A DNA stretch of 64,000 nucleotides from an uncultured Actinomycetes bacterium (GCA_963700495.1 CAVOXT010000002.1:72075-136074); one strand, 5' to 3'; positions 31,380 through 56,853 are shown, counted from the first letter of the stretch. Notes: generated by a model from the letters alone, not told the origin. Numbers and translations: made by a program.

Positions 31380-31381
31380 GC

Positions 31382-31401
31382 CCGAGCCGCCGAAGGCTCG
31401 G
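31382..31401 (+). terminator. stem-loop CCGAGCC-gccgaa-GGCTCGG directly after the polyprenyl synthase stop
   Basis: A perfect 7-bp stem starts 3 nt after the TGA, with no U-tract. It is followed by a 150-nt non-coding gap. Confidence 0.4.
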
Positions 31402-31531
31402 AGACTTGTAACACGGAGCCCGCGTAGGAGAGACTAGGAACAAGCCTCTCCGACGCCACAGGGGGACGCTAATCGCCGCAGACGGTCTTGAGGATGCGAG
31501 GCTGGAACAGGCCATCGCGTATCTGTCCAGC

Positions 31532-32197: not shown

Positions 32198-32203
32198 GGC
32201 GGC

Positions 32204-36875: not shown

Positions 36876-36876
36876 C

Positions 36877-38721: not shown

Positions 38722-39481
38722 CGATGACGCTCTCGAGATTCGACGGTCGCGTCGGCGCTGGTCACCGGCGGCTCGCGTGGGATCGGCCGCGCGATCGCCG
38801 TCCAGCTCGCACGCGAGGGCGCCGGCGTGGTCGTCGACTACGTGCGCGCCGAGGAGCGAGGCCGAAGCGGTCGTCGAGGAGATCACCTCGTCGGGCGGAG
38901 ACGCCCACGCTGTTCCAGGCGGACGTCGCGACGAGGCCGAGGTGAAGGAGCTCGTGCGCTTCGCGGTCCGACGCTCGGCGGCATCGACGTGCTCGTCGCC
39001 AACGCAGGAACGGTGCAGGATCAGCTCGTGGGGATGATGACGCGTGAAACAGTGGGACACCGTGCTCGACGTCAACCTGCGCGGAGCGTTTCTCTGCATT
39101 CGCGAGGTCCTGCCGTTCCTGATGCGACAAGAAGTCGAGCTCGGTCGTGTGCCTCTCGTCTGTCGCCGCCGTACAAGGCGGGACGGGGCCACGCCAACTA
39201 CGTCGCCGCAAAGGGCGGGCTGAACTCGATGGTGAAGTCGCTGGCCGTGGAGCTGGCGCCGAAGGGCGTCCGGGTGAACGCCGTCTCGCCCGGTGTTATC
39301 GCCACGCACATGTCGGAACGGGTGCCGACGGCTGGCGGGCGACGAGATCCTGGACGGAATACCGCTGCAACGCTACGGCGAGCCGGACGACGTCGCGCAG
39401 GCCGTGTGCTTCCTCGCCTCCGACGACGCGAGCTACGTCACCGGAGAGATTCTTCAAGTCACGGGAGGGTTCGGACTATGA
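38718..39481 (+). pseudogene. fabG: 3-oxoacyl-ACP reductase (about 9 frame breaks in 760 nt)
   Basis: Pieces are 'MTMTLSRFDGRV', 'ALVTGGSRGIGRAIA', 'IDVLVANAG', 'SSVAAVQGGTG', '[17 protein letters not shown]' and '[17 protein letters not shown]'. They alternate between all three frames. Confidence 0.75.
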
Positions 39482-40060
39482 ACAGCACGTCGCAGGCCGA
39501 CGTGGGCCGCCTCGGACGAGGTCGCCCTGAAGGTCCGAACGCTGACCGCAGAGAACCTCGAGCTCGACCTGGAGGACGTGCAGATGGAGTCGTCGTTCTT
39601 CGAGCTCGGTGCCGAGTCGCTCGACCTGCTCGACGTTGCCTTTGCGCTCGAGAGCGAGTACCGGATCTCGTTCCCCCGCACCGACATCCTCGAGCGGGCG
39701 ACCGAGCACTTCGGCGAGGAGGCGCTGGTCAAGGACGGACTCGTCACCGACCTGGGGCTGCAACTCCTGCGCGAGGGAATGCCCGAGTTGGACCCGGACC
39801 TGATCAAGCCCGGGCTGCGCGACACGGATGTCGCCCAGAAGATCACCGTCGGAAGCTTCGCGCGGATCACACAGCGACTGATCGACGCGAAAGCCGACTT
39901 CTCTCGGACTGCCCCGAGTGCGGGAGCCGCCTCGTCGAGTCGGAGATCATGCCCGAGTTCGAGTGCCCCGGCTGCGGCAAGATCGTTCCCGTTCCGAGCG
40001 GCGACGAGTGCTCTGCAGGATCTCATCGACCTGCACCAGCAGACCGTGGGGGCTCAGTGA
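39478..40060 (+). pseudogene. acyl-carrier-protein-like protein with internal insertion and C-terminal zinc ribbon (3 frame breaks)
   Basis: The ATG overlaps the fabG stop (ATGA). 'FFELGAESLDLLDVAFALESEY' (the Ser attachment motif) lies in ORF 39578..40060. 'CPECGSRLVESEIMPEFECPGCGKIVPVPSGDE' lies in the frame of ORF 38827..40506. The end 'ALQDLIDLHQQTVGAQ' returns to the first frame. Confidence 0.6.
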
Positions 40061-40506
40061 GGTTCCTGCTCGTCGACTCGATCTTGGAGCTCGAGACCGG
40101 TGCACGCGCCGTCGGGGTCAAGAACATCTCGATGAGCGAGGACTTCCTGGCCGACCACTTTCCCGACCGGCCGATCATGCCGGGCATGCTCATCCTCGAG
40201 TCGCTCGTCCAGCTCGCGGACTGGGTCGTTCGCGATGCGAGCAACTTCGACAAGATCGGCGTGGCCGCGGGTTTCGACCGGATCAAGTTCCGCCGCGTCG
40301 CGCGCCCCGGCGACCAGCTCCGGCTGGAGGTCGGCTTGAGCTCGTCGGATGACGGAACGCACGAGTTCCGAGGCAAGGCGTACAGCGGTGACGAGCTTGC
40401 CGCCTCGGCGAACATCACCATGATCGAGGCTCCGCTCGAGGACTATCTCGACGCCGATGCGGCGCGTGCTTCCCTTGCGATCCTGCGGCGGGACGGCGTC
40501 CCGTGA
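40057..40506 (+). CDS. FabZ/FabA-like hotdog 3-hydroxyacyl-ACP dehydratase
   Basis: The GTG at 40057 overlaps the upstream stop (GTGA). 'EDFLADHFPDRPIMPGMLILESLVQ' carries the catalytic His motif. Confidence 0.8.
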   Translation: MRFLLVDSILELETGARAVGVKNISMSEDFLADHFPDRPIMPGMLILESLVQLADWVVRDASNFDKIGVAAGFDRIKFRRVARPGDQLRLEVGLSSSDDGTHEFRGKAYSGDELAASANITMIEAPLEDYLDADAARASLAILRRDGVP

Positions 40507-41805
40507 GCACGGCCCCCCGCCGTGTCGTCATCACCGGCATGGGCGCTCTCACCTCGCTCGGTACCGACGTGGAGTCGAGTTGGGAGGCAGTGCTGGCGGG
40601 CCGGTCGGGCGTGCGCCAGATCAAGCAGTTCGAGAGCGACGAGTTCCCGGTGAACATCGGCGAGCGAGGTCGACGTCGACGAGCTGGAGGTCGACGGGTT
40701 CGACGAGTCGCTGCGGCCGTTCGTCACGCGCTCGGTGAAGCTGGGCGCGTGGGCCATGACCGAGGCGTGGGAGCAGGCGGGGCTCGAAGGGGGCAGCTAC
40801 GACCCCTGGCGGACGGGGCTCATCGTCGGCGCCTCCAACTTCCCCGTCATCGAGGAGTCCGAGTACAGCTGGCCGACCGAGGCACTCAACGTCGAGCGCT
40901 ACAAGGACCAGTACCTGGCCATCTGCGAGGACATGCCCCAGCTGCTGGCCCAGCGCGAGATCGGGATGGTCTCCGCCCTGCTTGCCGCCCCGTACCCGAT
41001 CAAAGGGCCGTGCATGACGGTGCAGTCCGCCTGCGCGTCGGCGACCCAGGCGATCGGCGAGGCCCTCCAGATGATCCGGCACGGCCAGGCGGACCTGATG
41101 GTGGCCGGAGGCGCGGACAGCATGCTCTCGGCCGTCTGCGTGACCGGCTTCACGCTGTTGACGGTCGCTTCGACCTATCGCGGCGACCCGGGCAAGGCCT
41201 GCCGGCCGTTCGACCGCAAGCGTGACGGCCTCGTCCTGGGCGAAGGTGCGGGGATCGTCATCCTCGAGAGCCTGGAAGCCGCACAGGACCGCGGCGCACC
41301 GATCCTCGCCGAGGTCGTCGGCTACGGCTCGTCGGCGGACGGGTACCGCTTCACGGACAGCCATCCGGAAGCGCGCGGCGCAGTGCAGTGCATGCGCGCG
41401 GCGCTCGCCGACGCCGACCTCCAGCCGGAAGACATCGACTACATCAACGCTCACGGGACCGGCACGCCGCAGAACGACCGCACCGAGACGTTCGCGATCA
41501 AGCAGGTGTTCCGGGACCACGCCTACGCGATTCCCGTGAGCTCCACGAAGTCCCAGCTCGGACATCTGCTGTGCGCCTCGGGCGGAGTCGAGCTCGTGAT
41601 CACGGTCGAGGCTCTGCGAAAGGGAATCGTCCCCCCGACGATCAACCTCGAGAACCCCGACCCGGACTGCGATCTCGACTACGTGCCGCACACGCCTCGC
41701 GAAGCGGACCTCGAGCTCGGGCTCTCGAACTCGTTCGGGTTTGGCGGCCAGAACGGCACGCTCATCGTCCGCCGCTCGGACGCCGCCACGGGAGCGGCCG
41801 GGTAA
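40503..41805 (+). pseudogene. beta-ketoacyl-ACP synthase (FabF/KS-alpha type; one frame break near 40665)
   Basis: 'RVVITGMGALTSLG' lies in ORF 40503..41225. The rest lies in ORF 40735..41805: the active-site Cys 'TVQSACASATQAIG', 'INAHGTGTPQND' and 'KSQLGHLLCASG'. Confidence 0.9.
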
Positions 41806-42269
41806 TGCGCTTCCTGCTCTTCGATCGCATCACCGAGGCCGAGCGCGGAAAGCGGATCCAGGGCGTCAAGCTGGTGAGCCTCACGGACGGCGCGCTCGCC
41901 GACCACTACCCGCGCCGAGCGGTGCTGCCGCCGACGTTGGTCGTCGAGGCCATGGCGCAGCTCGGTGGAATGCTCCACGTCCTCAACCACGACTTCTCGG
42001 TCGAGATGCTGTTGGTGCTCGTCGACCGCGTGAAGCTGGCTCGCCCGGTGCTTCACGGCGAGACGATCACGATCGAGGTCTGGTCGGAGTACGACCACCC
42101 GTACGGCGCGACCATGAACGGCGAGGCACGAGTCGACGGAGACGTGGTTGCGACCGCCGGCCGCATCGTCTACGCGCACGAGATCATCACCGACCCGAAG
42201 CGGATCCAGAAGGCACGGGATCGCTTCGCCTACCAGGGCGGCTCGCCCGCCGAGGTGTGGGTCGCGTGA
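41805..42269 (+). CDS. second hotdog-fold dehydratase-like protein
   Basis: The ATG at 41805 (TAATG overlap) lies inside ORF 41388..42269. The sequence 'MRFLLFDRITE..ALADHYPRRAVLPPTLVVEAMAQ' parallels the first dehydratase. Confidence 0.7.
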   Translation: MRFLLFDRITEAERGKRIQGVKLVSLTDGALADHYPRRAVLPPTLVVEAMAQLGGMLHVLNHDFSVEMLLVLVDRVKLARPVLHGETITIEVWSEYDHPYGATMNGEARVDGDVVATAGRIVYAHEIITDPKRIQKARDRFAYQGGSPAEVWVA

Positions 42270-43543
42270 GCGTCGCGGTCGTGACGGGAGTGGGTGTCGT
42301 GTCGCCGCTGGCGACGAGCGCGGCCGAGCATTTCGATGCCTGGATCGAGGGACGGTCCGCCGTCGCGGAGTCCGCCGAGCCCGAGTTCGAGAAGTACGCG
42401 CCCCAGCTCGAGGCCCGGGTCACCGGCTTCGACCGGAAAGAGGCGATCTCCAGCCGCATGCTCAGGAAGCTGCTGGCGCCGAGCGCGGGCTTCGCGGTCG
42501 GCGCCGCCGGAGAGGCGATCGCCGACGCCGGGCTCTCCGGCGAGCCCGAGGTGCTCGCGGACTGCGGGCTCTACATCGGATCGCTCTCGCTGGAGATCGA
42601 CCCCGACGTCTTCATCGCACCGCTGCGGGCGTCGCTCACGAGGGAGGGCGAGTTCGACCTGTCGCTGTTCGCCCAGCGGGGGATGAAGCTGCTCGATCCG
42701 CTGTTCCTCGTCCGCGCGCTGCCGAACGCCGGCCTCTGCGGAGTGTCTCTCGAGCATCAGGTGCTCGGACCGAACACGAACCTCACGAACGGCCCGACCT
42801 CGGGACTCGCGGCCGTCGCGCTGGCGGTGGCAGCGGTCGAGCGCGGCGAGATCCGCTGCGCGATCGCCGGCGGCTACGACTCGCTGCTCGTGATGGACGC
42901 CCTCGCCGAGCATCTGATCGCCGGACGCCTGGCCCGGAACGGCGGTGCGCCCGAACGGGCATGCCGCCCCTTCGACCGCACCCGCGAGGGATACGCGCTC
43001 GGGGAAGGCGCCGCCTTCGTCGTCGTGGAGTCGGTCGAACACGCCCGGGAGCGCGGGGCGAACTCCTACGGCCGAATCCTCGGCTACTCGAGCACCACCG
43101 ACCCGGGTCTCCTCGGCCCTTCGAGCCCCTTGGACGGCACTGCGCTCGAGCAGGCTGCCCGCCTGGCCCTCGAACGCGCGGGGACGGCCCCCGCGGAGCT
43201 CGGCGCCATCTTCGGCGACGGTCTTGCAACCGAGCTGGACGACATCCGGGAGAGCGACGCCGTCGGCCGCGTGCTCGACGGGGCCAAGGTGCCCTTCACC
43301 GCGCCGACGAGCGCGATCGGCTACACCGGCGCCGCCAGCGGGGTGTTCTCGCTGCTCCATGCCCTGGTCGCGGTCCGCCGAGGAGTGGCCCCGCCGCTCG
43401 CGAACTGCGACGAGCTCGACCCTCGCTGCCCGGTCCACCACCACTCCACTCCTGCGCCGCTCTCTCCGGAGACGGTCCTCGTGTGGAACAGCGAGCGCGG
43501 CGTCAAGAACGTCGCGATGGTCGCCGGCCCCGACGCCCCCTGA
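42266..43543 (+). CDS. KS-like partner lacking the catalytic triad (chain-length-factor-like)
   Basis: The GTG at 42266 (GTGA overlap) lies inside ORF 41741..43543. It has a thiolase fold, but 'NLTNGPTSGLAA' replaces the A-C-A-S-G Cys site and 'FGDGLATELDD' replaces 'HGTGT'. Confidence 0.8.
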   Translation: MSVAVVTGVGVVSPLATSAAEHFDAWIEGRSAVAESAEPEFEKYAPQLEARVTGFDRKEAISSRMLRKLLAPSAGFAVGAAGEAIADAGLSGEPEVLADCGLYIGSLSLEIDPDVFIAPLRASLTREGEFDLSLFAQRGMKLLDPLFLVRALPNAGLCGVSLEHQVLGPNTNLTNGPTSGLAAVALAVAAVERGEIRCAIAGGYDSLLVMDALAEHLIAGRLARNGGAPERACRPFDRTREGYALGEGAAFVVVESVEHARERGANSYGRILGYSSTTDPGLLGPSSPLDGTALEQAARLALERAGTAPAELGAIFGDGLATELDDIRESDAVGRVLDGAKVPFTAPTSAIGYTGAASGVFSLLHALVAVRRGVAPPLANCDELDPRCPVHHHSTPAPLSPETVLVWNSERGVKNVAMVAGPDAP

Positions 43544-43553
43544 GAGCCGGAAG

Positions 43554-44393
43554 GTGTACGTCCTCGCCGCTCTGCTCATCCCGGTCGCGGTGGCAACCGC
43601 GCTCCTCACGAGGCTGTTCCTGCGCCAGGACCGCCTGATCTTCCGGCCCGGACCGGTGCTCGACCGCAGCCCGGCGAGCATCGGGATCCCCCACGAAGAG
43701 CTGCGGCTGGCGGCCGACGACGGAACGAGCGTGACCGCCTGGTGGGTCGCCGGAGCCGCGGAGGCACCGGTCGTCCTCTACTTCCACGGCAGCGAGGGCA
43801 ACCTCACCCACGAGCTGCCGGTCGTGCACTTCCTCAACTCGCTCGGTGTCAACGCGCTGCTCGTCGAGTACGTCGGCTACGGCTCGGACGAGTTGCGGCC
43901 GAACGAAGCCGGCTGCTACCGGACCGCCGACGCGGCCTGGAGGTACCTGACGCAGGATCGGGGTTTCGCCGAGGACCAGGTGATCCTGTTCGGGCACTCG
44001 CTCGGGGCCGCCGTGGCGGCACGCAGCGCCGCAGGGCGTGGCTGCGCAGGGCTCGTTCTTCAGAGCGGCTTCACCTCGGTGAAGGATCTCGCTGCGCGCG
44101 CCTACCCGTACCTGCCGGTCCGGCCGTTCCTGCGGACCCGCATGGACGTGCTCGAGCCGGTCCGGCGCAGCCGGTGCGCGGTGCTCGTCATCCACTCGCG
44201 AGACGACGAGCACATTCCCTACGAGCAGGGCCGGCGCCTGTTCGACGAAGCCCGCGCGACGAAGAAGCTCGTCACGCTCCGGGGGTCGCACTTCGGCCTG
44301 ACCTGGCACCGCTCACCCGAGATCAGGGCCGCGTGGCGCGAGCTGCTCGCACGGGACTTCAGCACCTGGGCGGCGCAGGCAGAGAGCAGCTGA
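43554..44393 (+). CDS. alpha/beta hydrolase (ABHD/BEM46-like) with N-terminal TM helix
   Basis: The GTG at 43554 follows a GGAAGG Shine-Dalgarno sequence. Motifs are 'VVLYFHGSEGN', 'LFGHSLGAAVA' and 'VIHSRDDEHIP'. Confidence 0.8.
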   Translation: MYVLAALLIPVAVATALLTRLFLRQDRLIFRPGPVLDRSPASIGIPHEELRLAADDGTSVTAWWVAGAAEAPVVLYFHGSEGNLTHELPVVHFLNSLGVNALLVEYVGYGSDELRPNEAGCYRTADAAWRYLTQDRGFAEDQVILFGHSLGAAVAARSAAGRGCAGLVLQSGFTSVKDLAARAYPYLPVRPFLRTRMDVLEPVRRSRCAVLVIHSRDDEHIPYEQGRRLFDEARATKKLVTLRGSHFGLTWHRSPEIRAAWRELLARDFSTWAAQAESS

Positions 44394-45016
44394 TGCGGGA
44401 CGAGGTCCGCCGGATCGCGCTCGGGACCAAGGGCTTCCTCACCGAGCCCGAGGGATTGCGCCTGTACGAGCTGGCACGCAGCAGCTCGGGCGACGGACCG
44501 TGTCTCGAGATCGGCTCCTACTGCGGCAAGTCGGGACTGTTCCTCGGGGAAGGGTGCCGGGAGACCGGCCGGCATCCGCTGTTCACCGTTGACCACCACC
44601 GCGGCTCCGAGGAGCACCAGCCGGGAGAGGCGTACCACGACGCCGAGCTCTACGACGACGGCGAGCAGGCGATGACGACGCTGCCTGAGCTGGTCCGGAA
44701 CATCCGGACGGCCGGGTTGGAGAGCTGGGTTATCCCGCTCGTCGCCGAGTCGGAGATCCTCGGCCGGTATTGGCCCGAGCACAGTCTCAGCCTCCTGTTC
44801 CTCGACGGCGGGCATTCGGAGTCGGACGCCTTCGGCGACTACCGGACCTGGCACCGCTGTCTCCGGCCGGGCGGGTACCTGTGCATCCACGACGTCTTCC
44901 CCGACGCGACCGACGGCGGTCAGGCTCCGTACGGCGTCCTCTGCGAGGCGAGGTCGGACGACTCCTGGCAGTACGAGGGGATGGTCGAGACCCTCGCCGT
45001 CCTGAAGCGGCTGTGA
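44393..45016 (+). CDS. class I SAM-dependent (O-)methyltransferase
   Basis: The ATG at 44393 (TGATG overlap) lies inside ORF 43742..45016. Motifs are 'CLEIGSYCGKS', 'LLFLDGGHS' and 'LRPGGYLCIHDV'. Confidence 0.75.
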   Translation: MRDEVRRIALGTKGFLTEPEGLRLYELARSSSGDGPCLEIGSYCGKSGLFLGEGCRETGRHPLFTVDHHRGSEEHQPGEAYHDAELYDDGEQAMTTLPELVRNIRTAGLESWVIPLVAESEILGRYWPEHSLSLLFLDGGHSESDAFGDYRTWHRCLRPGGYLCIHDVFPDATDGGQAPYGVLCEARSDDSWQYEGMVETLAVLKRL

Positions 45017-46065
45017 GCACTGCGATCCGCTCCTCGCGCCACCTTGGAAAGTTCCCGCGTGCTCGAACGGACACGTGGGTGATGGTCGGCCAGGACGGCG
45101 GCCAGTCGATCGACCTCGGCGATCAGGCCCTCGTCGTCTTCTCCGACACGCTGCTGCTGCCGACCGACGCTTCCGACCAGGTGTCCGACCGGCACAAGAC
45201 CGCGCCCCCCTATGCGGACGACGTCGCGGAGCGCGGCGTGTTCCTGGCGAACTGCGCCGCGCTCGTCGACGGGGCCGATCTGCGTGAGGGCCTCCGCCGC
45301 CTCAGGTTCTTCACGGACGACGACGAGTTCCCCGTCGAGATCCTCGCGCCGACCGAGGACGAGACAGCGGCCGGCCTGCGCTTCTGGCCGGCTCACGGCG
45401 TGGCGTCCGGCGGCGGGGTCTACCTCTACTACCTCGGCATCGAGACGCTCACGCCGCGCGACGTGTGGGACTTCCGCAACGTCGGCGTGGGACTGGCCCG
45501 ACTCGACCCGGAAACGGGCCGCTGCGAACGGATCCGTGTCGACGGCGACTGGTGCCTGTGGCGGCCGCGGTCCGACGACTTTCACTTCGGCGTACAGGCG
45601 GTCCGGCACGACGGTCAGGCGTACGTCTTCGGGAGCACGCGCCACGGGCTGGACGTCTCGGCGCTGCTCGGCCGTGTGCCGCTCGAGGAGATCGCCGACC
45701 CGGGTGCGTACGAGTTCTACGACCCGGGACGCGACGCGTGGCTCGCCGACTCCGGTCTGGCCGGAAGTCTCGGCCCGTGCGGCAGTGACTTCTCAGTCTC
45801 GTTCAACGCGTACCTCGGCCGGTGGCTGATGGTGTACGTCGACGCGTTCAGCAAGCAGCTCGCGCTCAGGCTCGCCGATCGGATCGAGGGGCCCTACTCC
45901 GAGCCGGAGATCGTCGGGCGGTTGCCTCATGCACCCGCGAGCGACCTGGTCTATCTCGGGTTCGAGCATCCGAAGTTCGCGCGCGACGACGGCCGCCGCG
46001 TTCTGGTCTCCTACTGCGAGCCCCGCTTCGAGATGTGCTCGCTCCTCGAGGTCTCGTTCCAATGA
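45013..46065 (+). CDS. DUF4185-like protein (beta-propeller glycoside-hydrolase-like)
   Basis: The GTG at 45013 overlaps the upstream stop (GTGA). 'GQSIDLGDQALVVFSDTLL', 'FWPAHGV' and 'VYLYYLG' resemble DUF4185 as I recall it. Confidence 0.5.
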   Translation: MSTAIRSSRHLGKFPRARTDTWVMVGQDGGQSIDLGDQALVVFSDTLLLPTDASDQVSDRHKTAPPYADDVAERGVFLANCAALVDGADLREGLRRLRFFTDDDEFPVEILAPTEDETAAGLRFWPAHGVASGGGVYLYYLGIETLTPRDVWDFRNVGVGLARLDPETGRCERIRVDGDWCLWRPRSDDFHFGVQAVRHDGQAYVFGSTRHGLDVSALLGRVPLEEIADPGAYEFYDPGRDAWLADSGLAGSLGPCGSDFSVSFNAYLGRWLMVYVDAFSKQLALRLADRIEGPYSEPEIVGRLPHAPASDLVYLGFEHPKFARDDGRRVLVSYCEPRFEMCSLLEVSFQ

Positions 46066-48548
46066 GTGACGAGACGCTGCAGGGTCTCGCGCAGCGCCTG
46101 CCGGCCTTCGGCGACCGGCGCGCGCTCGGGCTGCGCGGCTCGTACGGCAGTCGTTGGTGGACCTATCGTCGGGTGCACGCCGAGGCCTTTCGCTTCGCCG
46201 GCCTCCTCGAGGACCGCGGGGTTCAGGCAGGCGACCGCGTCGCGATCTGGGGCGCCAACGGGCCGGAGTGGGCCGCCGCTGCATTCGGCGCGATGCTCAG
46301 AGGCGCGGTCGTCGTTCCGATCGACGAAGGCACCTCGGCGTCGCATGCCTCGCAGCTCGTCGAGCTCGCCGGACCGCGGCTCGTCTTGCACGACCCGAAC
46401 GTCGACGTCGGCGCGCTCGGCGTTCCGGGTCTGTCCCTCTTCACCGCCGCCGAGCACGCCGGCGAACGCAACGTCGTCGTGCCGGTCGGGCCGGAGGACC
46501 CGGCGTTCCTCCTCTTCACCTCGGGGTCGACGCGCGAGCCGCGCGGCGTGGTGCTGACGCACCGAAACCTCGTCAGCCAGGCCGCCGCTTTCCGACGTTG
46601 GCGATGGCTGACGCGGATGCACGCCTATCGCTTGCTGGCGCTCTCGCCCCTCAGCCACGTGCAGGGCCTCGTGATGGGACTGGTGGTGCCGGCCTCGCTC
46701 GGGCTGAGCGTCCTGTATTCCGAGTCCGTCGAGCCGGCGCACGTGATCCGGACGATCCGTCAGAACCGGATCAACATCCTGCTCGCCGTCCCAAGGGTGC
46801 AGGGAATGCTGGCCGACGCACTGCGCGCGTCCCCGTACGGCGACGGCCGCCGGACCCTCGGCGAGCGAGCGTCGGAGATCCGCGCGTTCGTGCTGCGGCG
46901 CCACGTGCTGTTCCTTGCGACGCGTCGACAGCTCGGCTACTCGTTCGGCGTCCTGCTCGTCGGTGGTGCGACGCTCGCGCCGGACGACGAGCGCTTCTGG
47001 TACGAGTGCGGCTACGTGCTGGCTCAGGGGTACGGCCTCACGGAGACGAGCGCACTCGTTTCGGTCCACGTGAACGGTCCCTTCGGGGCGCGCCTCGGGT
47101 CGGTCGGACGAGCGCTCCCGCACCAGGACGTCCGGATCGGCGCCGACGGCGAAGTCCTCGTGCGCGGTCCGAATGTGACGGGCGGTGACGGCTACCTGCA
47201 CACCGGCGACCTGGGCCGCCTCGATGCGCGCGGACGACTGTGGCTGCGGGGCAGGAAGGACGACGTGATCGTCACCGGCGAGGGCCTCAACGTCCACGCC
47301 GACGACGTCGAAGCGAGCCTCCGTGCCGTCGCGGGTGTCCGCGACGCGGTCGTCGCCGATCTCGACGACGGCGGTCAGGTTCACGCCGTGCTGTTGCTCG
47401 ACGACGGCAGCGCGCCCGGCGAGGTCGTGGCGTCGGCCAATGCGACGCTCGAGCCGTATCAGCGCGTGCACAGCTGGAGCGTCTGGCACGAAGGCGACTT
47501 CCCGCGCACGAGCCTGCTCAAGGTGCGCCGCGCCGAGGTGATCGGCGCAGCCCGCGCCGGCAACGGCGGCACGGCGAGGCCGGACGCCGCCCCCGACCTC
47601 GGGACGATTCGCGCCGAGGGCGACCGCCGCCGCCGGTTGCAGCTGCTGGCCCGCTACCTCACGGATCCCGACAGTGGGAGCGACCCCGACGCGCAGATCG
47701 AGGACTTCGGGCTGAGCTCGCTCGACGCGGTCGAGCTGCTTGCGATGATCGAGGTGATCGAAGCGAGGCCGATGCCGCAGCTCTCGATCACACCGGCAAC
47801 AACCGTCGCCGAGCTCCGCCGTTCGGTCTCGGGTCCGTCCCCAAAGCGCGTGCTGCCGACGCGCCAGCCTAGGTGGTCCGCCGCGTTGCCCGGGCGGTTG
47901 ATGCGACTCGCGACCCGGCCGCTGCTCGTCGGGAGCTGGGCACACCTCGCGGCGGGAGTCTCGGTCGTGCACGACCGCCCCCCGCGCGGGCAGTGCGTCC
48001 TCGCCGTCGCCCCGCACCGTCACTGGCTCGACGCGTTCGCGGTGCAAGCCGCCCTGCCCGCAGGGACGCGCACCATCACGGTCACGAACCGCGACTTCGC
48101 CGAGCACTTCGCACCGACCGACGACGTGCCGCGCCGCGCGCGGTTTGCGGTCGGCTTCGCGTACCACCTTCTCTGGCCGATGGTCTTCCAGTTCGCGATC
48201 GTGCCGAACTACGGAAGCACGCGAGAGGGGCTCCAGGAGCTCGGCACAGCGATCGACCGCGGGCTCAGTCCGATCTCGTTCCCGAAGGGACTCGCGCCAC
48301 CGGGACAGCCCAACCCGCGTCACGAGCCCGGGATCGCCGAGCTCGCGACGCAGACCCAGCTGCCGGTGGTTCCCGTCTGGATCGACGGCAACGACGAGCT
48401 CGGCGTGCTGCCCCGCCGCAGAAGGCCCCGGGTGACGGTCCGGTTCGGCGAGCTCATACCCGTCGGTCCGCAGACCGAGCCGAACGAGGTGGTCGAGCGC
48501 GTCGAGGCCGCCTACGAGCTGCTTGCACGTGCGGGGGGCATGCGATGA
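46062..48548 (+). CDS. tri-domain fusion: acyl-AMP/CoA ligase - phosphopantetheine carrier - PlsC-type acyltransferase
   Basis: The ATG at 46062 overlaps the upstream stop (ATGA). Adenylation motifs are 'LLFTSGSTREPRGV', 'QGYGLTETS', 'YLHTGDLG' and 'GRKDDVIV'. The carrier motif is 'DFGLSSLDAVEL', and the acyltransferase H-x4-D motif is 'APHRHWLDAF'. The 828 codons are uninterrupted. Confidence 0.85.
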   Translation: MSDETLQGLAQRLPAFGDRRALGLRGSYGSRWWTYRRVHAEAFRFAGLLEDRGVQAGDRVAIWGANGPEWAAAAFGAMLRGAVVVPIDEGTSASHASQLVELAGPRLVLHDPNVDVGALGVPGLSLFTAAEHAGERNVVVPVGPEDPAFLLFTSGSTREPRGVVLTHRNLVSQAAAFRRWRWLTRMHAYRLLALSPLSHVQGLVMGLVVPASLGLSVLYSESVEPAHVIRTIRQNRINILLAVPRVQGMLADALRASPYGDGRRTLGERASEIRAFVLRRHVLFLATRRQLGYSFGVLLVGGATLAPDDERFWYECGYVLAQGYGLTETSALVSVHVNGPFGARLGSVGRALPHQDVRIGADGEVLVRGPNVTGGDGYLHTGDLGRLDARGRLWLRGRKDDVIVTGEGLNVHADDVEASLRAVAGVRDAVVADLDDGGQVHAVLLLDDGSAPGEVVASANATLEPYQRVHSWSVWHEGDFPRTSLLKVRRAEVIGAARAGNGGTARPDAAPDLGTIRAEGDRRRRLQLLARYLTDPDSGSDPDAQIEDFGLSSLDAVELLAMIEVIEARPMPQLSITPATTVAELRRSVSGPSPKRVLPTRQPRWSAALPGRLMRLATRPLLVGSWAHLAAGVSVVHDRPPRGQCVLAVAPHRHWLDAFAVQAALPAGTRTITVTNRDFAEHFAPTDDVPRRARFAVGFAYHLLWPMVFQFAIVPNYGSTREGLQELGTAIDRGLSPISFPKGLAPPGQPNPRHEPGIAELATQTQLPVVPVWIDGNDELGVLPRRRRPRVTVRFGELIPVGPQTEPNEVVERVEAAYELLARAGGMR

Positions 48549-49816
48549 GGGTCACCATCCTCACGGCCGGGTCGCGCGGCGACATCCAACCGTACGTGGC
48601 GCTCGGCGCCGGCCTGCGCCACGCCGGCTTCACCGTGCGGCTGGCGACCCACGTCGGCTTCCGGGATCTCGTCGAGTCGCAGGGCCTGGAGTTCGCCAAG
48701 GTCGCGCATCCCTCGGACGTGCTGACCACGGACCCGCGTTGGGAGGCGCTTCAGAACGCCGGCGACACCGCCGGACGGTTCGTGCGCCGCTCCGCGCGGG
48801 TCGTGCGGATGATTCAGCCGCTGCTCACGGGAATGCTCGACGACTACTGGGCGGCGTGCCAGGGAGCAGACGCGGTCATGAGCTCCGTCGCCGGAATCGG
48901 CGGGCCTCAGCAGGCCGCCGCTCTCCACGTTCCACACTGCTGGGCGCTCGTCCAGCCGATGAGTCCGACCGCCGAGTACCCGCACTTCATGGCCCCCGCC
49001 CCGCGCCGCCTGCCGCGACGGCTCAACTTCCGCACCCACGTCATCGCCGAGCGGGTTCACTGGCGTCTGTTCCGCGCCGCCGTCAACCGTTGGCTGGCCG
49101 CCAACCTCGGCGCGGGTTCGGTTCCCAAGCCCGCGCCGGGCGGCCTCTTCGGATCCGGTGCCGGCTCGATCGTGTACGGGATCAGCCCCTCGGTGGTTCC
49201 GCGGCCGAGCGACTGGCCGCCGAACATCGCGCAGTTCGGTCACTGGTTCCTCGACTCGGCGCCCGACGCGACCCTTCCGGCCGAGCTCGAAGACTTCCTC
49301 GATGCGGGCGCTCCGCCCGTCCTCGTCCATGCGGACCGGATCGGCGTGACCCCGCGCGAGGACTTCGTCGCGATGGCTGTCCGCGTGCTTCAGCGCCTCC
49401 GTTTGCGCGGACTCGTCTCCGGACCGGAGGCGGGAGCGCTGCCCGACTCGGCTCTGTACATCCCACCGGTTCCTTTCGACCGGCTCTTCCCGCTGGTTGC
49501 CGGCGTCGTGCACCACGGCGGCGTCGGGACGACCGCGACGTCGTTGCGAGCGGGGATCCCGAGCTTCGGTGTGCCCGGGTTCTTCGACCAGCAGTTCTGG
49601 ACCTCACGCGTTGCGGCGCTCGGCGCGGGACCTCGCCCCGTGGCGGCGCGACGAATGACGGAAGCGCGGTTCGAAGCGGCGATCGCGCAGCTCGTCGGCG
49701 ACGCCTCGATCCGAACGCGGGCCGCCGAGCTGGGACGCCGGATCAGGTGCGAGCGCGGAGTCGACGAGGCCGTCGTCCACCTGCGGGCCGTCCTCGCTGG
49801 AGCGAGCGATGCCTAG
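48545..49816 (+). CDS. GT1-family (MGT/UGT/sterol-glucosyltransferase-like) glycosyltransferase
   Basis: The ATG at 48545 overlaps the upstream stop (ATGA). The sequence begins 'MRVTILTAGSRGDIQPYVALG' and later carries 'VVHHGGVGTTATSLRAGIPSFGVPGFFDQQFW'. Confidence 0.8.
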   Translation: MRVTILTAGSRGDIQPYVALGAGLRHAGFTVRLATHVGFRDLVESQGLEFAKVAHPSDVLTTDPRWEALQNAGDTAGRFVRRSARVVRMIQPLLTGMLDDYWAACQGADAVMSSVAGIGGPQQAAALHVPHCWALVQPMSPTAEYPHFMAPAPRRLPRRLNFRTHVIAERVHWRLFRAAVNRWLAANLGAGSVPKPAPGGLFGSGAGSIVYGISPSVVPRPSDWPPNIAQFGHWFLDSAPDATLPAELEDFLDAGAPPVLVHADRIGVTPREDFVAMAVRVLQRLRLRGLVSGPEAGALPDSALYIPPVPFDRLFPLVAGVVHHGGVGTTATSLRAGIPSFGVPGFFDQQFWTSRVAALGAGPRPVAARRMTEARFEAAIAQLVGDASIRTRAAELGRRIRCERGVDEAVVHLRAVLAGASDA

Positions 49817-50159
49817 CGTCTACGGGCTGCACCGCGTGCGCCTCCGCCCCGGCGTCGACCCGGAGGAGTTCGAGCGGTTCACGCTCGCGGAGTTCCTGCC
49901 GGCGCTTCAGGCGCTGCACGCTCCGGGTGTGCAGTTCGCGCTCCTGAAAGCAGAGCGCGGCGCGGACGCGGGCGAGTATCAGTTCATGATGGTCTTCGAC
50001 AGCGTCGAGACCCGCGATCGGTACTTCCCGGAGGAAGTTCGCGCGTCGGACGAGCTGATCGAGCTGATCCAGCCGCTCGCACCGCTCGCCGAGGTCTGGG
50101 AGGGGCTGTCGGCCCGCGAGAAGACGGACTGGCTGAGGCTCGGGGACGGCCCGTCGTGA
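49809..50159 (+). CDS. hypothetical small protein (alpha+beta barrel-like?)
   Basis: 116 aa with protein-like composition. It has an 8-nt overlap upstream and a GTGA overlap downstream. Confidence 0.5.
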   Translation: MPSVYGLHRVRLRPGVDPEEFERFTLAEFLPALQALHAPGVQFALLKAERGADAGEYQFMMVFDSVETRDRYFPEEVRASDELIELIQPLAPLAEVWEGLSAREKTDWLRLGDGPS

Positions 50160-52045
50160 GGCAGCTGCCGAACGTCACGGCGTTGCCGCCGCTGCTGCGG
50201 CGTTCCCGGTCCAACACCAACGGGCTGCTCGAGCTGCTGCGGTATTCGAGCTCCCCGCTGCGGAATCGTGTTCGGGCGCGCTTCCCACGAGTCGAGGCGG
50301 AACGGATTCTGGGGATCGCCAGCACCGGGCACGGCGCCAGCCTGACCTACCTCGATGCCTCCGGCGTCGTCCGAAGCTCACAGCTCGAGCGCTGGACCGG
50401 AACGAAACACATGATGCTGTTCTCGCGCGATGAGGACGAGGCTCTCCGCGAGCCGAGCTCGAAGATCGACAAGACGATCAACCACCTCTTCACCCACGGC
50501 TACGGGCGTTTCCCGGACAGCCGGGTCTTCGAAGACACGATCGACTCGTGGCGCGAGTGGTTGCTGCGCGGGCTGGACGTCGACGTCGGCAGCATCGACC
50601 TCGTCGTGACGAGCGACGGACACTTCGCGACCGGGTGGGCTCGCCTCGGCCCCCACCTCCGGCGCTGGTTCCCCAACGCAACCATCGTCAGGGCGATCGA
50701 GCATCACGAGATCCACCAGCGCCAGGCCTTCTGGGCCAGCGGCCTCGACGAGGCAGCGGTGCTCACGCTCGACAGCGCAGGCGAGGCGCTCCCGCGGCGC
50801 CGCTGGCGAAAGCTCGCCGGAACGCTCTCCGTGATGAACCAGGCCGGCGAGTCGCACATCGTCCGCGAATGGCTGTCCCCGCAGATGAGCTCCGGCGCGA
50901 TCTTCGACGCCGCCACCCACCACGTCGGCTTCCGGCAGGGCGAGGAGGGCAAGACGATGGGCCTCTCGGCGTACGGGTCCGGCGAGCTGTTCGAGTCGCT
51001 GCGACCTCAACTCAGCCTGCACGCGGACGGAGGCTTCTCCTTCCTCGCCCTGACCGACTTCGAGGCCGCGCTCGCGCGCTACACGCCCAAGCGGGAGCAG
51101 GGCGAGGAGATCACCGCCCGGCACATGGAGGTGGCGTTCGCCGGGCAAGCGATCGTGGAGCTGATCGTCAGCAACGCCTGGCGCGCGGCACTCGAGTCGA
51201 CGGGCCGCCGCGACCTGGCATACGCCGGCGGGGTGGCGTTGAACAGCGTGGCCAACGGCAGGGCATGGCGCGAGGTGGGCCCGAGAAGCGTCTACATCCC
51301 GCCGAACGCAGGCGACGCGGGTCAGAGCCTCGGCTGCGCACTGTTCGGCGCGTACGAGCTCGCAGGCTGGGAGCCGCCGGACGAAGAGCTGGCCGAGTAT
51401 CTCGGCCCCACCTACGGCGAAGACGCGATCGCGAGCGCCGTGGCGTCGAACGACCATCCAACGACCCGCCCCGCCGCATTGGAGGAAGTGGTTGCGGCGT
51501 GTGTCGCCAACGGGCACATCGTCGCCCGGTTCGACGGCGGCGCGGAGTTCGGGCCGCGGGCGCTCGGGAACCGGAGCATCCTGGCCGATCCTCGCCGTCC
51601 CGGCATGAAGGACTACCTCAACCTCCGGGTCAAGCACCGCGAGTCGTTCCGGCCCTTCGCGCCGGCCGTGCTCGACGACCACGCCGGCGAATGGTTCGAG
51701 CTCGACGTGCCGAGCGCCTACATGCTGCGGGTGGTGCCGATCAGGCCCGACAAACTGGGGCAGATACCAGCAGTGGCGCACGTCGACGGGACCGCGAGGG
51801 TCCAGACGCTGTCCGAGCCGCAGAACCCCGAATTCTGGCGCACGATCTCGGCCTTTCGCGACAGAACCGGCGTGCCGCTCGTGCTCAACACCTCCTTCAA
51901 CCTGGCCGGGAGGCCGATCGTGGAGACACCGGCGGACGCGGTCGAGTGCTTCGCCGGTTCAGAGATCGACGTGCTCGCCGTCGGGCCGTTCGTCATCTCG
52001 AAGAAGCCGCTGGAGGAGTACCTCGCAACCGACTCCGGAGCTTGA
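50156..52045 (+). CDS. NodU/CmcH-family carbamoyltransferase
   Basis: Motifs are 'ILGIASTGHGAS', 'GGVALNSVANG', 'PNAGDAGQSLG', 'GPRALGNRSILADP', 'KHRESFRPFAP' and 'HVDGTARVQT'. Confidence 0.85.
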   Translation: MRQLPNVTALPPLLRRSRSNTNGLLELLRYSSSPLRNRVRARFPRVEAERILGIASTGHGASLTYLDASGVVRSSQLERWTGTKHMMLFSRDEDEALREPSSKIDKTINHLFTHGYGRFPDSRVFEDTIDSWREWLLRGLDVDVGSIDLVVTSDGHFATGWARLGPHLRRWFPNATIVRAIEHHEIHQRQAFWASGLDEAAVLTLDSAGEALPRRRWRKLAGTLSVMNQAGESHIVREWLSPQMSSGAIFDAATHHVGFRQGEEGKTMGLSAYGSGELFESLRPQLSLHADGGFSFLALTDFEAALARYTPKREQGEEITARHMEVAFAGQAIVELIVSNAWRAALESTGRRDLAYAGGVALNSVANGRAWREVGPRSVYIPPNAGDAGQSLGCALFGAYELAGWEPPDEELAEYLGPTYGEDAIASAVASNDHPTTRPAALEEVVAACVANGHIVARFDGGAEFGPRALGNRSILADPRRPGMKDYLNLRVKHRESFRPFAPAVLDDHAGEWFELDVPSAYMLRVVPIRPDKLGQIPAVAHVDGTARVQTLSEPQNPEFWRTISAFRDRTGVPLVLNTSFNLAGRPIVETPADAVECFAGSEIDVLAVGPFVISKKPLEEYLATDSGA

Positions 52046-52052
52046 GGCAGCG

Positions 52053-53475
52053 ATGAGGGTCCTCTTCATCACCTACTGCTTCGGGGATCCAGCGGGCCAG
52101 GCGCTGATCGGGGTCTACAAGCGCGGGCTTCGCGTCGCTCTCGAGCTCCACGACCGCGGCCACGACGTGCTCTTCGACTGCACCGGACGCGGCAGCTACC
52201 GCGACGACCTGACCGAGTTCGCGGAGGACCGGATCCACTTCGTCGACCTGGGCCTCTACGACGGCGAGAACGACGGCTCGGAGCGGAGCCGGCAGAACTC
52301 CCTGCAGGCGATGTCGCGTTGCCGGCCCGACCTCGTCGTCGTCGGCGAAGCACCACTTGCCGGGACGCTCCTGGAGGCAACTCTGTGCGCGGTCGAGCTC
52401 GGCATACCGGTCGCGCTCCTCGACAACGCCTACAACGCGCGAGCGGTCCGGCGTTTCCTCAGGGACCACGGCGGGATGGTGGATGCCGTCGTTCTCACCG
52501 GCCCGAGCTGCGCGCACACGGGGGCGCCGCCCGCACACCTTCGGCAGGTACCGCCTTTCGTGACGAGCGCGCGGTCGGAGGCAGCGCTGCTGGTCGAGGA
52601 ACGCCTGGGGCTTCGCGCAGAGCGACTCGTCTGCATCCTGGCCTATGACGGCAAGGTCGAGCGACTCGGTTTCTCGCTCATCGAGAGCCTCGACGCGCCT
52701 GAGGCGGCGTACGTCTTCATGTCGAGAGATCCCGAGGAGTGTGAGCGGCGTGCGGCGGCGCTTCCCGAAGATCTGAGGGCGCGAGTCCGGGTGCTCGAGC
52801 TGCTCCCGGATCCGCTCCTGTTCGGACTGATCGAGCTGTCCAGCCTCGCGGTCGTCAAGTACGGGTTCATGCAGGTCACCGAATGCATGTCGCTCCGCAC
52901 ACCGGTGATCTGCGCGTACCACGAGGGCCCAACGTGGCTCGATCTGCTTCCTGGAGCGTGCCGGTCGTTCGTGCACGCGGCGGAGCACGAAGACGCAGAC
53001 CCGGCAACGGTCGCCGCGGCCGGGAGGTTTCTCGAGGTCGGCGAGCGGGCGATGGCCTCCATCCACGACGGCGAGTTCGATGCGAGCGTTCGGGCGGCCG
53101 ACTTCCTGGAGGCCGTACCGGCAGAGCCAGCGCCGAGAAGCGTCGACCGAAGCCGTCCGAAAGTTCCCCGAGAAGCAGGTGCGCGCCGCCGTCCGCGCAG
53201 CAACGGGGCGCCGGTCGGTCAGCGTCCTGCTCATGCGCGCGATGCGGCTACGTTCGCTCCCGGGCGAGGAGGTGCATTCGCTCGTCTGCCGCTACACGAT
53301 CGACGGCGCCGAGCGCTTCCTGCGGCTCTGGGGGCACCGCTACGCCTCGGGCCGGGCGGTCAAGCGCGGACGGAGGGAGGCCGCTCGCTCCGGGAGACGG
53401 GTGCTCTTCGCGTCGCCGCGCGAGCGCGTGCTGATCGAATCGGATCTTGGTCAATCGATGCTTCCGCCGCTGTAG
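52053..53475 (+). pseudogene. GT-B-like protein with novel C-terminal domain, tandem copy A (frame break near 53125)
   Basis: This is the first 358 codons of ORF 52053..54908 plus ORF 53080..53475. By comparison with copy B, the C-terminus (SVSVLLMRAMRLRSLPGEEVHSLVCRY..RFLRLWGHRYASGRA) is in the other frame and ends at the TAG at 53473-53475. Confidence 0.7.
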
Positions 53476-53477
53476 GG

Positions 53478-54908
53478 ATGAGGGTCCTCTTCATCACCTA
53501 CTGCTTCGGGGAGGTCTCGGGGCAGGCTCTCATCGGGGTCTACAAGCGCGGGCTGCGCATCGCTCTCGAGCTCCACGACCGAGGCCACGAGGTGCTCTTC
53601 GACTGCACCGGACGCGGCACCTACCACGATGACCTGACCGAGCTCGCGGACCAGCGGCTGCAGTTCGTCGACCTCAACCTCGACGCCGTCGACGAGGAAG
53701 GCCTGGAGCGGAGCCGCGAGAGGGCCCTGCAGGCGATGTCCCGCTGCCGGCCCGATCTCGTCGTGGTGGGCGAGGCGCCGATGCTCGGCACGCTGCTCGA
53801 GGCCACCCTGTGCGCCGTCGAGCTCGGCATACCGGTCGCGCTGCTCGACAACGCCTACAGCGCGCACGCGGTGCCGTACTTCCTTCGGAACCACGGCGGG
53901 ATGATGGACGGCGTTGTCCTGACAGGCCCGAGCTGCACGCATGCGGAGACGGCGCCCGCACACGTCCGCCAGGTTCCGCCGTTCGTGACGACCGCCTCGT
54001 CGGAGGCAGCCCAGCTGGTCGAGCACCTCGGGCTCCGACAGGAGCGCTTGGTCTGCGTCCTGGCGTATGACTCGAAGGTCGAGGGGCTCGGCTTCTCGCT
54101 CGTCGAGCGCCTGCGCGCACCCGACATCGATGTTCTCTTCTTGTCCCGATCCCCAGAGGAGAGCGAGCGGACGGCAGCCCGTCTGCCGGCGGAGCTCCGC
54201 GCCCGCGTCCGGGTGCTCGGCTTGCTTCCGGATCCGCTTCTCTTCGGACTGATCGAGCTGTCCAGGCTCGCGGTCGTCAAGTGCGGGTTCATGCAGGTCA
54301 CCGAGTGCATGGCGCTCAGGACCCCGGTGATCTGCGCATACCACGACACCGCGACGTGGCTCCGGTGGGTGCCCCGCGCCTATCTGCCGTTCGTCCACAT
54401 TGCGGAGCACGACGAGGCGGACCGAGCGACACTTGCCGCCGCCGCGCGTCTCTTCGACGTCCCCGAGCAGGCGATGAGCTCGATCCATGACGGGTCGTTC
54501 GACGCGACAGCCAGCGCGGCCGACTTCCTCGAAGGCCTGTCCGCGGAGCAGCGTCCGGAGACATGGACCGAGACCGTCGACGTCTTCCCCGAGACACAGG
54601 TGCGAGAGGCACTGCGCACGGCTGTGGGAGGACAGGAGGTCAGCCTGCTGCTGCTGCGCGCGATGCGCCTGCGCGCCCTCCCGCGCGAGGAGGTGCATTC
54701 GCTCGTCTGCCGGTGCAGGGTCGACGGCGGCGAGCACTTCCTTCGCCTGTGGGGTCACCGCTACGCCTCGGGACGCGCGGCGAAGCGGGCGCAGCGGGAG
54801 GCCGTTCGCTCAGGGCGACAGGTGCTCTTCGCGTCGCCGCGCCGGCGCGTGCTGATCGAACCGGACCTCGGTCAGGAGCTGCTGCCGCCGTTGCTCGGCG
54901 CCCACTGA
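53478..54908 (+). CDS. GT-B-like protein with novel C-terminal domain, tandem copy B
   Basis: This is the internal Met476 of ORF 52053..54908. The sequence 'MRVLFITYCFGEVSGQALIGVYKRGL..' is colinear with copy A along its full length. Confidence 0.75.
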   Translation: MRVLFITYCFGEVSGQALIGVYKRGLRIALELHDRGHEVLFDCTGRGTYHDDLTELADQRLQFVDLNLDAVDEEGLERSRERALQAMSRCRPDLVVVGEAPMLGTLLEATLCAVELGIPVALLDNAYSAHAVPYFLRNHGGMMDGVVLTGPSCTHAETAPAHVRQVPPFVTTASSEAAQLVEHLGLRQERLVCVLAYDSKVEGLGFSLVERLRAPDIDVLFLSRSPEESERTAARLPAELRARVRVLGLLPDPLLFGLIELSRLAVVKCGFMQVTECMALRTPVICAYHDTATWLRWVPRAYLPFVHIAEHDEADRATLAAAARLFDVPEQAMSSIHDGSFDATASAADFLEGLSAEQRPETWTETVDVFPETQVREALRTAVGGQEVSLLLLRAMRLRALPREEVHSLVCRCRVDGGEHFLRLWGHRYASGRAAKRAQREAVRSGRQVLFASPRRRVLIEPDLGQELLPPLLGAH

Positions 54909-56756: not shown

Positions 56757-56853
56757 TTCGAACTCCCCTCTGACGGACTTGGCGCGAAGTCGCTTCACCA
56801 CGTCGTCGGCAAGGGCGAGCAGTGGCTGGCCGCTGGACTTCGTACTGCCGACT

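Follow-up and report, generated by a model that had tools for sequence, protein, structure and literature searches.

A ligase-carrier-acyltransferase fusion protein encoded in a conserved, predicted polyene glycolipid cluster

What is the function of a single protein that joins an acid-activating ligase, an acyl carrier and a lipid-type acyltransferase when its gene lies inside a polyketide cluster? The question is raised by a locus of an uncultured Actinomycetes bacterium (GCA_963700495.1, CAVOXT010000002.1:72075-136074), the whole 64,000-nucleotide stretch of which is referred to here as the window. A first-pass annotation, made from the sequence alone, had noted one uninterrupted gene of 828 codons encoding these three domains in this order, and had proposed that the enzyme activates the acyl or polyene acid of the surrounding cluster, holds it in cis and transfers it onto a glycerol- or sugar-type acceptor. 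On balance we lean towards a related answer: the product would be a self-contained ligase-carrier-lysophospholipid acyltransferase (LPLAT) enzyme, similar to ElbD of Myxococcus xanthus, that captures an acid for attachment to an acceptor.

In the scheme that we propose, the N-terminal ANL-type domain would adenylate a free long-chain carboxylic acid to give an acyl-AMP. The acid would then be thioesterified onto the phosphopantetheine arm at Ser553 of the built-in carrier, an arm primed by the cluster's own Sfp-type phosphopantetheinyl transferase (PPTase), and the PlsC-fold domain (His652 and Asp657) would pass the acyl group to a hydroxyl. The acceptor would most likely be the sugar or glycerol scaffold of the cluster's polyene glycolipid, not lysophosphatidate: the ancestral flow from acid to acceptor would be kept, with the acceptor switched from a lysophospholipid to a glycosyl or glycerol scaffold.

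The gene itself is intact. Its open reading frame (ORF) translates without interruption, and all of the motifs that had been quoted for it were located: TSGSTREPRGV (residues 153-163), YGLTETS (324-330), TGDLG (381-385), GRKDD (397-401), FGLSSLDAVEL (549-559) and HRHWLD (652-657). The ATG shares 4 nt (ATGA) with the stop codon of the upstream DUF4185 gene, and the stop codon overlaps, also by 4 nt, with the GT1 gene that starts downstream. Long chance ORFs occur in the window because its G+C content is approximately 70%; one of 770 aa (46011-48323, - strand) lies opposite the tri-domain gene. This antisense ORF was rejected as a gene, as its G+C content by codon position (0.87/0.52/0.76) is not coding-like and marks it as a high-GC artefact. 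The same explanation was rejected for the tri-domain ORF on the basis of its own codon-position values (0.76/0.51/0.88) and of full-length homologues that are up to 96% identical.

Assignment of the N-terminal domain to the ANL superfamily is based on the presence of motifs A3, A5, A7, A8 and A10 and on a Pfam match well above the cut-off (PF00501 AMP-binding: 213.8 bits, E = 4e-63; cut-off 29.9). The A10 lysine, K487 (within PRTSLLKV), is invariant in 118 of 118 aligned full-length relatives. Matches in the PDB, with E values down to 8e-63 by profile and 4e-31 by fold, are to acyl-CoA and aryl-CoA ligases: the 60 best listed include FadD13, FadD5, FadD8, FadD10, MenE, MatB, 4CL and a feruloyl-CoA enzyme, and none of these 60 is named as a fatty acyl-AMP ligase (FAAL). 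A Foldseek comparison of the whole structural model with the PDB likewise returned acyl-CoA/aryl-CoA ligases, along with adenylation-carrier fusions such as EntE-EntB, and the relatives are labelled 'long-chain acyl-CoA synthetase' in their source annotations. Motifs A5 and A7 are separated by only about 50 residues, a spacing that reads as leaving no room for the FAAL-specific insertion, the place of which is known from FAAL28. The domain does carry an insertion of its own, which is placed elsewhere and is helical in the model (helices 266-272 and 276-291). Judged by these features, the ligase looks like an acyl-CoA-synthetase-type enzyme and not a strict FAAL, and its substrate is most likely a long-chain acid. 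The exact substrate is not predictable from the PDB and NCBIfam neighbours, which mix fatty-acyl, aryl and dicarboxylate ligases, and no specific NCBIfam model matches the protein.

The segment that follows is very probably a true carrier. Ser553, within a G-x-S-S-L motif, is kept in all 118 aligned relatives. In an AlphaFold2 model built on 38 sequences (mean predicted local distance difference test score [pLDDT] 85, predicted template modelling score 0.86), this serine forms the N-terminus of helix 553-567 in a small helical, carrier-like segment. PF00550 (PP-binding) is matched at E ≤ 0.01 by 18 of the 45 cluster-associated relatives, and the PPTase that had been named as a partner for the enzyme is indeed encoded in the cluster. 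The interdomain linkers are approximately 17 and 13 residues long with lower pLDDT; together with the domain order, they fit a hand-over in cis.

The C-terminal domain retains the H-x4-D pair of block I, block IV and profile similarity to PlsC, and departs from the LPLAT pattern in block III, which reads FPKGLAP, with Lys in place of Glu and no Arg. In clade A, the clade to which the window's protein belongs, His652 and Asp657 are kept throughout; among 17 clade-A sequences of 40-70% identity, 25 acyltransferase positions (the H-x4-D pair and 23 others) are invariant, which indicates purifying selection. A clade-A profile of the C-terminal 233 residues found a single meaningful solved structure, PlsC of T. 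maritima (5KYM, E = 9e-6, across blocks III-IV), and PF01553 (Acyltransferase) is matched at E ≤ 0.01 by 18 of the 45 cluster-associated relatives. In the model this part is an alpha/beta domain that follows the carrier segment and is preceded by a long helix (609-629). The whole-model Foldseek search was uninformative here: in all of the 50 matches listed, the aligned part is chiefly the adenylation domain, and a few of them reach into fused carrier or non-ribosomal peptide synthetase (NRPS) domains.

The change in block III bears on the choice of acceptor. In motif work on glycerol-3-phosphate acyltransferases and 1-acylglycerol-3-phosphate acyltransferases (AGPATs), the Glu and Arg of FPEGxR are tied to binding of the phosphorylated acceptor. 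Because FPKG replaces this motif, the acceptor would be non-phosphorylated, and not glycerol-3-phosphate or lysophosphatidate. The modified motif favours the sugar-type acceptor of the first-pass annotation; its companion claim, that the acid is the polyene, did not fare as well, since an ordinary fatty acid or a polyketide synthase (PKS) starter fits about equally.

More than 100 full-length relatives of the fusion were found (118 aligned), so the layout is not rare. Clade A has block I APH(R/H)HWLD and block III FP(K/Q/R..)G. In clade B, block I is HEHGxD and block III is FPEG-like or deleted, while clade C has lost the block I histidine (DREH..) and has block III deleted. Clade D, at approximately 33% identity, is canonical in both (NHxxxxD and FPEGxRT). 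By motif census, H-x4-D is conserved in clades A, B and D; canonical FPEGxRT is kept in the distant clade D only and is lost in the cluster-linked clades. Clade D is widespread in metagenome-assembled genomes (MAGs) of Acidobacteriota, where it stands alone, with no biosynthetic neighbours in two Pfam-annotated contexts and in a marker scan of the other genome loci. Such a stand-alone clade suits lysophospholipid acylation as the ancestral role.

When the acyltransferase domain alone was searched against 1.84 billion cluster representatives, 297 relatives were found at E ≤ 1e-3, with 28 at E ≤ 1e-30. All full-length matches (738-939 aa) have the domain at the C-terminus, and the shorter matches look like gene fragments. 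None of the 150 best relatives is longer than 939 aa, and for this reason none of these 150 could accommodate an extra reductase domain. On this evidence, the acyltransferase lineage appears to be confined to the third position of the ligase-carrier-acyltransferase layout. Contig scans of genomes and metagenomes, which used generic ligase motifs, picked up chiefly members of the distant acidobacterial clade or ligases that are unrelated; they yielded at least five further cluster contexts (L005, L006, L008, L091 and L097).

The tri-domain gene is part of a cluster of approximately 27 kb with a co-directional gene run, in which most junctions from the ketosynthase (KS) to the carbamoyltransferase abut or overlap by 1-4 nt (Table 1). 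It is the only adenylating enzyme of the cluster. The type II PKS block shows the core features of aryl-polyene systems: a KS with a chain length factor (CLF) that lacks the active-site Cys, ApeI-like dehydratases, a ketoreductase (KR) and an acyl carrier protein (ACP), with no enoyl reductase in the block. The CLF cysteine is replaced by Thr here and by Thr, Val or Ala, never Gln, across the loci compared; the dehydratases match the ApeI-like family, with PF22818 matched in L001, L002, L085-L087, L171 and L173. On the strength of the missing enoyl reductase, the ApeI-like dehydratases and the altered CLF, the PKS product is predicted to be a conjugated polyenoyl chain, comparable to those of aryl-polyene and ishigamide-type systems. 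In keeping with the island named in the first-pass annotation, the gene is embedded in a predicted glycolipid cluster that has a PPTase of its own. No literature on this cluster was found.

Table 1. Positions in the window of the tri-domain gene, its domains and motifs, and the genes of the surrounding cluster.
Feature	Position	Strand	Remarks
Tri-domain gene	46062..48548	+	828 codons and stop; coupled translationally to both neighbours; full-length homologues
ANL-type adenylation domain	46062..47546	+	Residues 1-~495; A3 TSGSTREPRGV, A5 YGLTETS, A7 TGDLG, A8 GRKDD, A10 K487
Insertion of ~40 residues (255-296)	46824..46949	+	Between VPRV and LVGGA; gap in BLASTP alignment with E. coli Aas
Carrier (phosphopantetheine-binding) domain	47595..47837	+	Residues ~512-592; Ser553 codon 47718-47720
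LPLAT/PlsC-type acyltransferase domain	47859..48545	+	Residues ~600-828
Block I HRHWLD	48015-48032	+	Motif census
Modified block III FPKG	48279-48290	+	Motif census
Block IV LPVVPV (in LPVVPVWIDG)	48360-48377	+	Motif census
Polyprenyl synthase, DUF4440-like protein, two uncharacterised proteins (562 and 353 aa), Methyltransf_23 fusion, GT4	30510..37990	+	Upstream part of cluster
Reducing type II PKS block	37990..43543	+	KR, KR, ACP, ApeI-like dehydratase, KS, FabA-like dehydratase, CLF
Alpha/beta hydrolase (possible thioesterase) and Methyltransf_24 methyltransferase	43554..45016	+	
DUF4185/DUF5005 beta-propeller gene	45013..46065	+	No predicted membrane segment
GT1 (EryCIII-like), 116-aa protein, carbamoyltransferase, two tandem paralogues	48545..54908	+	
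FAD-dependent oxidoreductase (geranylgeranyl-reductase-like), SnoaL-like protein, Sfp-type PPTase	54872..57624	-	
Sfp-type PPTase	56854-57624	-	ACPS and AASDHPPT_N matches

The same cluster, in largely the same order, surrounds relatives of at least 36% identity (36-96%) in 15 related loci (L001, L002, L005, L006, L008, L085-L089, L091, L097 and L171-L173), of which L173 holds the 96% identical relative. Some of these loci come from MAGs with the labels Chloroflexota, Firmicutes, Thermoanaerobaculia or Bryobacterales; G+C contents across the loci range from 56 to 75%. The DUF4185 gene lies directly upstream of the tri-domain gene in 10 of 14 related contexts. A type II PKS is present in 12 of the 15 loci. 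The other three (L005, L088 and L006, the last a short contig) keep the DUF4185 gene, the tri-domain gene, the methyltransferase and the uncharacterised proteins with no type II PKS nearby; the carbamoyltransferase is kept in L005 and L088 and was not seen on the short L006 contig. Retention of the gene in L005 and L088, where no type II PKS is close by, argues for its membership of the lipid-assembly module. In L088, the tri-domain gene is followed downstream, after 6 kb, by the start of a large type I PKS (18535-22529) with its own DIP2-like ligase, ACP, KS and acyltransferase; chains for the glycolipid module may come from more than one kind of machinery.

These data bear on both ends of the proposed reaction. 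A sugar or glycerol scaffold as acceptor is suggested by the FPKG block III together with the coupling to DUF4185, glycosyltransferase and carbamoyltransferase genes. For the acid, our leading candidate, though we rate it as somewhat less likely than not, is the polyenoic acid made by the PKS and released by the alpha/beta hydrolase: the hydrolase, encoded after the CLF, could release the chain, and in the aryl-polyene lipid (APEL) pathway a PKS of this kind makes the conjugated fatty acyl chain that the LPLAT ApeD installs on a lipid. An ordinary fatty acid is a close second candidate, favoured by persistence of the gene in the PKS-less variants. A co-occurrence of the hydrolase with an intact acyltransferase, as a 'hydrolyse then re-activate' pathway would have it, was considered and rejected: L091 has an intact acyltransferase and no hydrolase, while L172 has a degenerate acyltransferase and a hydrolase. 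By analogy, Aas of E. coli and ElbD, both of which couple a ligase with an LPLAT, support the capture-and-transfer scheme.

Several observations weigh against that scheme. The domain search proposed in the first-pass annotation confirmed the AMP-binding domain; the other two fell below their Pfam cut-offs, PP-binding narrowly (PF00550: 20.1 bits; cut-off 20.8) and Acyltransferase more widely (PF01553: 15.3 bits; cut-off 23), and are backed by the other evidence given above. A plain Pfam search consequently reports the adenylation domain alone, as do the precomputed annotations of most close relatives; more distant relatives bear all three Pfam domains. Sister clades B and C of the same cluster have lost block III, or the histidine too, while their ligase and carrier are intact, so the acyltransferase may be dispensable for whatever task of the protein is conserved. 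A discrete ACP is also encoded in the cluster, so hydrolysis and re-activation of the polyene would look wasteful, and no acceptor can be named. The literature yielded no characterised ligase-ACP-LPLAT enzyme, only passing mentions. Finally, several PKS genes are frameshifted in the window, and the pathway may be broken here unless the frameshifts are sequencing errors.

The last point can be assessed by comparison with L173, the DNA of which is 96% identical and the cluster genes of which are all open. Its alignment with the window has 37 gap openings, nearly all one base long; 29 of these fall within 36.2-40.7 kb, and others include 53124, 55673-55680 and 56775-56792. The Methyltransf_23 gene, GT4, the first KR (twice), the second KR and KS are frameshifted in the window and intact in L173. 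The tri-domain gene is itself intact in the window; in L173, a one-base indel near its 5' end (at window position 46173) is the reason that the gene is called at 791 aa only. Assembly errors seem a likelier explanation of this indel pattern than real decay. Outside the cluster, a T4 gp19-like tail-tube gene (57632-58098, - strand) is also split by a frameshift, into two overlapping ORFs of 56 aa (profile positions 85-134) and 99 aa (positions 1-77); it may derive from a contractile-injection system or a prophage remnant.

A fuller version of the capture-and-transfer scheme can be put forward as a tentative possibility, one that we would not rely on: the cluster might be the counterpart of APEL clusters outside the Gram-negative phyla, directing synthesis of a hitherto undescribed class of carbamoylated, methylated and possibly isoprenoid-linked polyene glycolipids, with the tri-domain protein recapturing the polyenoic acid and esterifying the sugar with it. 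Its third domain would then be an LPLAT turned from phospholipid to glycolipid acylation and equipped with a ligase and carrier of its own. The polyprenyl synthase and the geranylgeranyl-reductase-like FAD enzyme (54872-56377, - strand) are the grounds for supposing that an isoprenoid may be part of the product or be used in making it.

Of the alternatives, a starter-unit loader survives best, although we consider it unlikely. Here the ligase and carrier would prime the KS-CLF with a (fatty) acid in the manner of ApeH, EncN or FAAL-ACP proteins, and the acyltransferase would be vestigial or serve only in off-loading of the completed chain. A starter must be supplied from somewhere, given that the CLF residue is Thr, Val or Ala and not Gln and that there is no KSIII or other priming enzyme; the tri-domain protein is the sole adenylating enzyme, FAAL-ACP didomains commonly prime PKSs, and strict conservation of the ligase and carrier beside a decaying acyltransferase in clades B and C agrees with a loader. 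Set against this are L005 and L088, which keep the gene beside DUF4185 with no type II PKS within 10 kb (the type I PKS of L088 having its own ligase-ACP loader), and clade A, in which H-x4-D and much of the acyltransferase are invariant. The gene also lies in the tailoring half of the operon and not by the KS, and since the chain would be on the discrete ACP after the first condensation, it is hard to see why a loader should be fused to an LPLAT.

The decay in clades B and C, where blocks III and I are lost stepwise though the domain is retained, could instead mean that the C-terminal domain is a non-catalytic module for membrane docking or scaffolding, and that another enzyme uses the acyl-S-carrier (candidates being the alpha/beta hydrolase, the DUF4185 protein or an ApeJ-type glycosyltransferase/acyltransferase). 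The Glu to Lys change in clade A, the sub-threshold Pfam score and the undetectable acyltransferase activity of ElbD, which also counts against the capture-and-transfer scheme, all agree with such a module. The invariance of His652 and Asp657 in clade A and the retention of block IV do not, and 25 invariant positions in 17 sequences are more than a scaffold needs; we regard this explanation as improbable. Housekeeping recycling, in which lysophospholipids would be re-acylated with scavenged fatty acids, as by Aas and presumably by the stand-alone acidobacterial clade, and the position in the cluster would be incidental, has in its favour the Aas precedent and the occurrence of the same architecture alone, outside clusters, in Acidobacteriota and other MAGs, but it is very improbable in view of the 4-nt overlaps with both neighbours, the synteny across differently labelled MAGs with loci of 56-75% G+C, and the loss of FPEGxR in all cluster-linked clades and its retention in the stand-alone clade.

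Further features of the cluster were noted. The discrete ACP of the PKS is unusually long, at approximately 193-198 aa (~39500-40060 in the window, + strand; L173:3307-3885; L001:3991-4587), and consists of a fatty-acid-synthase-type ACP followed by a C-terminal CxxC...CxxC tail with a weak zinc-ribbon match. The DUF4185 family includes mycobacterial endo-D-arabinanases, and the DUF4185 protein perhaps acts as a transglycosylase in this cluster; no specific NCBIfam model was found for it or for the uncharacterised neighbours. A 951-aa ORF at 52053-54908 (+ strand), with no Pfam or NCBIfam match, represents two tandem paralogues read through: these are separate genes of 473 and 476 aa in L173 and a single 468-aa copy in L001, and most versions of the cluster have kept a copy. 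The N-terminus of the paralogues (MRVLFITY..G..) looks similar to that of GT-B glycosyltransferases. In the upstream part (30510-34950, + strand), the proteins of 562 and 353 aa recur in L005, L086, L088 and L089, and the polyprenyl synthase recurs beside the cluster in L086, L097 and L171 (twice in the last). Of the cluster proteins put through a crude hydropathy scan, none was recognised as a multi-pass membrane protein.

If the proposed mechanism is true, a single soluble protein would capture a lipid chain at the expense of ATP, tether it and use it for O-acylation, and would thereby be a compact enzyme for engineering glycolipids. It would further give a clear example of LPLAT acceptor specificity shifted off phosphorylated glycerolipids. 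Acyltransferase activity is undemonstrated for ElbD or any relative found, a gap that a tractable homologue would help to close. The whole cluster is of more interest than the fusion itself: the gene marks a conserved, unstudied cluster with a polyene glycolipid as its predicted product. APELs, the nearest analogue, protect against oxidative stress, and by that analogy the product could be a widespread pigment or antioxidant lipid of soil bacteria.

Among known systems, the myxobacterial ether-lipid enzyme alluded to in the first-pass annotation proved to be ElbD, of the ether-lipid/plasmalogen pathway of M. xanthus, with the order reductase-ligase-ACP-AGPAT-like acyltransferase. In vitro work has confirmed the activity of its ligase and its ACP, and detected no acyltransferase activity. 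'ElbD-like' homologues without the reductase, or split from it, have been reported in other phyla. Compared by published domain order, ElbD (Q1DC43) and the protein described here share the ligase-ACP-AGPAT order in one polypeptide, with the protein's own carrier loaded by a long-chain-acid ligase. In contrast to ElbD, the tri-domain protein has no N-terminal reductase of the fatty acyl-CoA reductase type (the Pfam ligase match starts at residue 15, and the gene upstream encodes DUF4185), lies in a type II PKS/glycosylation/carbamoylation cluster, and has FPKG instead of FPEGxR in block III. No neighbours of the elbB (HAD phosphatase), elbC or elbE (epimerase) type are present in the window or the 15 related loci.

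E. coli Aas (2-acyl-glycerophosphoethanolamine acyltransferase/acyl-ACP synthetase) similarly fuses an LPLAT to an ANL synthetase and re-esterifies a free acid onto a lipid. The difference drawn in the first-pass annotation holds on BLASTP comparison: Aas has the reverse order and no built-in carrier, and it also has a canonical FPEG and lacks the 40-residue insertion. The ligase parts are 24% identical (E = 8e-20), and acyltransferase blocks III-IV match marginally (E = 0.13). With PlsC (1-acyl-sn-glycerol-3-phosphate acyltransferase, 5KYM), the third domain shares H-x4-D, the block IV proline motif and helices N-terminal to the core; it differs in that the Glu of FPEGTR is Lys, the Arg is absent and a ligase and a carrier precede the domain in one polypeptide. 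FAAL-ACP loading didomains of PKS and NRPS systems also present an adenylating domain fused to its cognate carrier within a polyketide cluster; their ligase is a FAAL, whereas the one described here looks to be of the acyl-CoA-synthetase type. A 2021 survey of FAAL-like proteins mentions uncharacterised fusions to LPLATs, and a 2025 review of FAALs does not cover ligase-LPLAT fusions.

At the level of the cluster, the closest resemblance is to APEL clusters of Gram-negative bacteria, which likewise have a reducing type II PKS (KS with a Cys-less CLF, ApeI-like dehydratases, KR and ACP) alongside an adenylating enzyme, an LPLAT, a glycosyltransferase, a methyltransferase and a hydrolase. The APEL parts comprise the acid:ACP ligase ApeH, the ACPs ApeE and ApeF, the LPLAT ApeD and the glycosyltransferase/acyltransferase ApeJ; ApeD and ApeH are likened to the tri-domain protein by their described functions. 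Here ligase, carrier and LPLAT are joined in one protein, and a carbamoyltransferase, DUF4185, GT1/GT4 and a polyprenyl synthase are additional. Pfam scans of the window and related loci found no RND, LolA-like or LolB-like export components of the ApeL/M/N type, no second KS (ApeR) and no aryl starter. Whereas APEL clusters are found in Proteobacteria and Bacteroidetes, those related MAGs that have a name bear the labels Chloroflexota, Firmicutes and Acidobacteriota. The first-pass annotation would have counted as refuting a common, already characterised family, and half of this applies: the architecture is known, common and noted in print, and biochemically uncharacterised. What is new here, as far as can be read from the sequences, is that the acyltransferase has diverged, with a change in its acceptor motif, and that it has been recruited into a conserved, predicted polyene glycolipid cluster.

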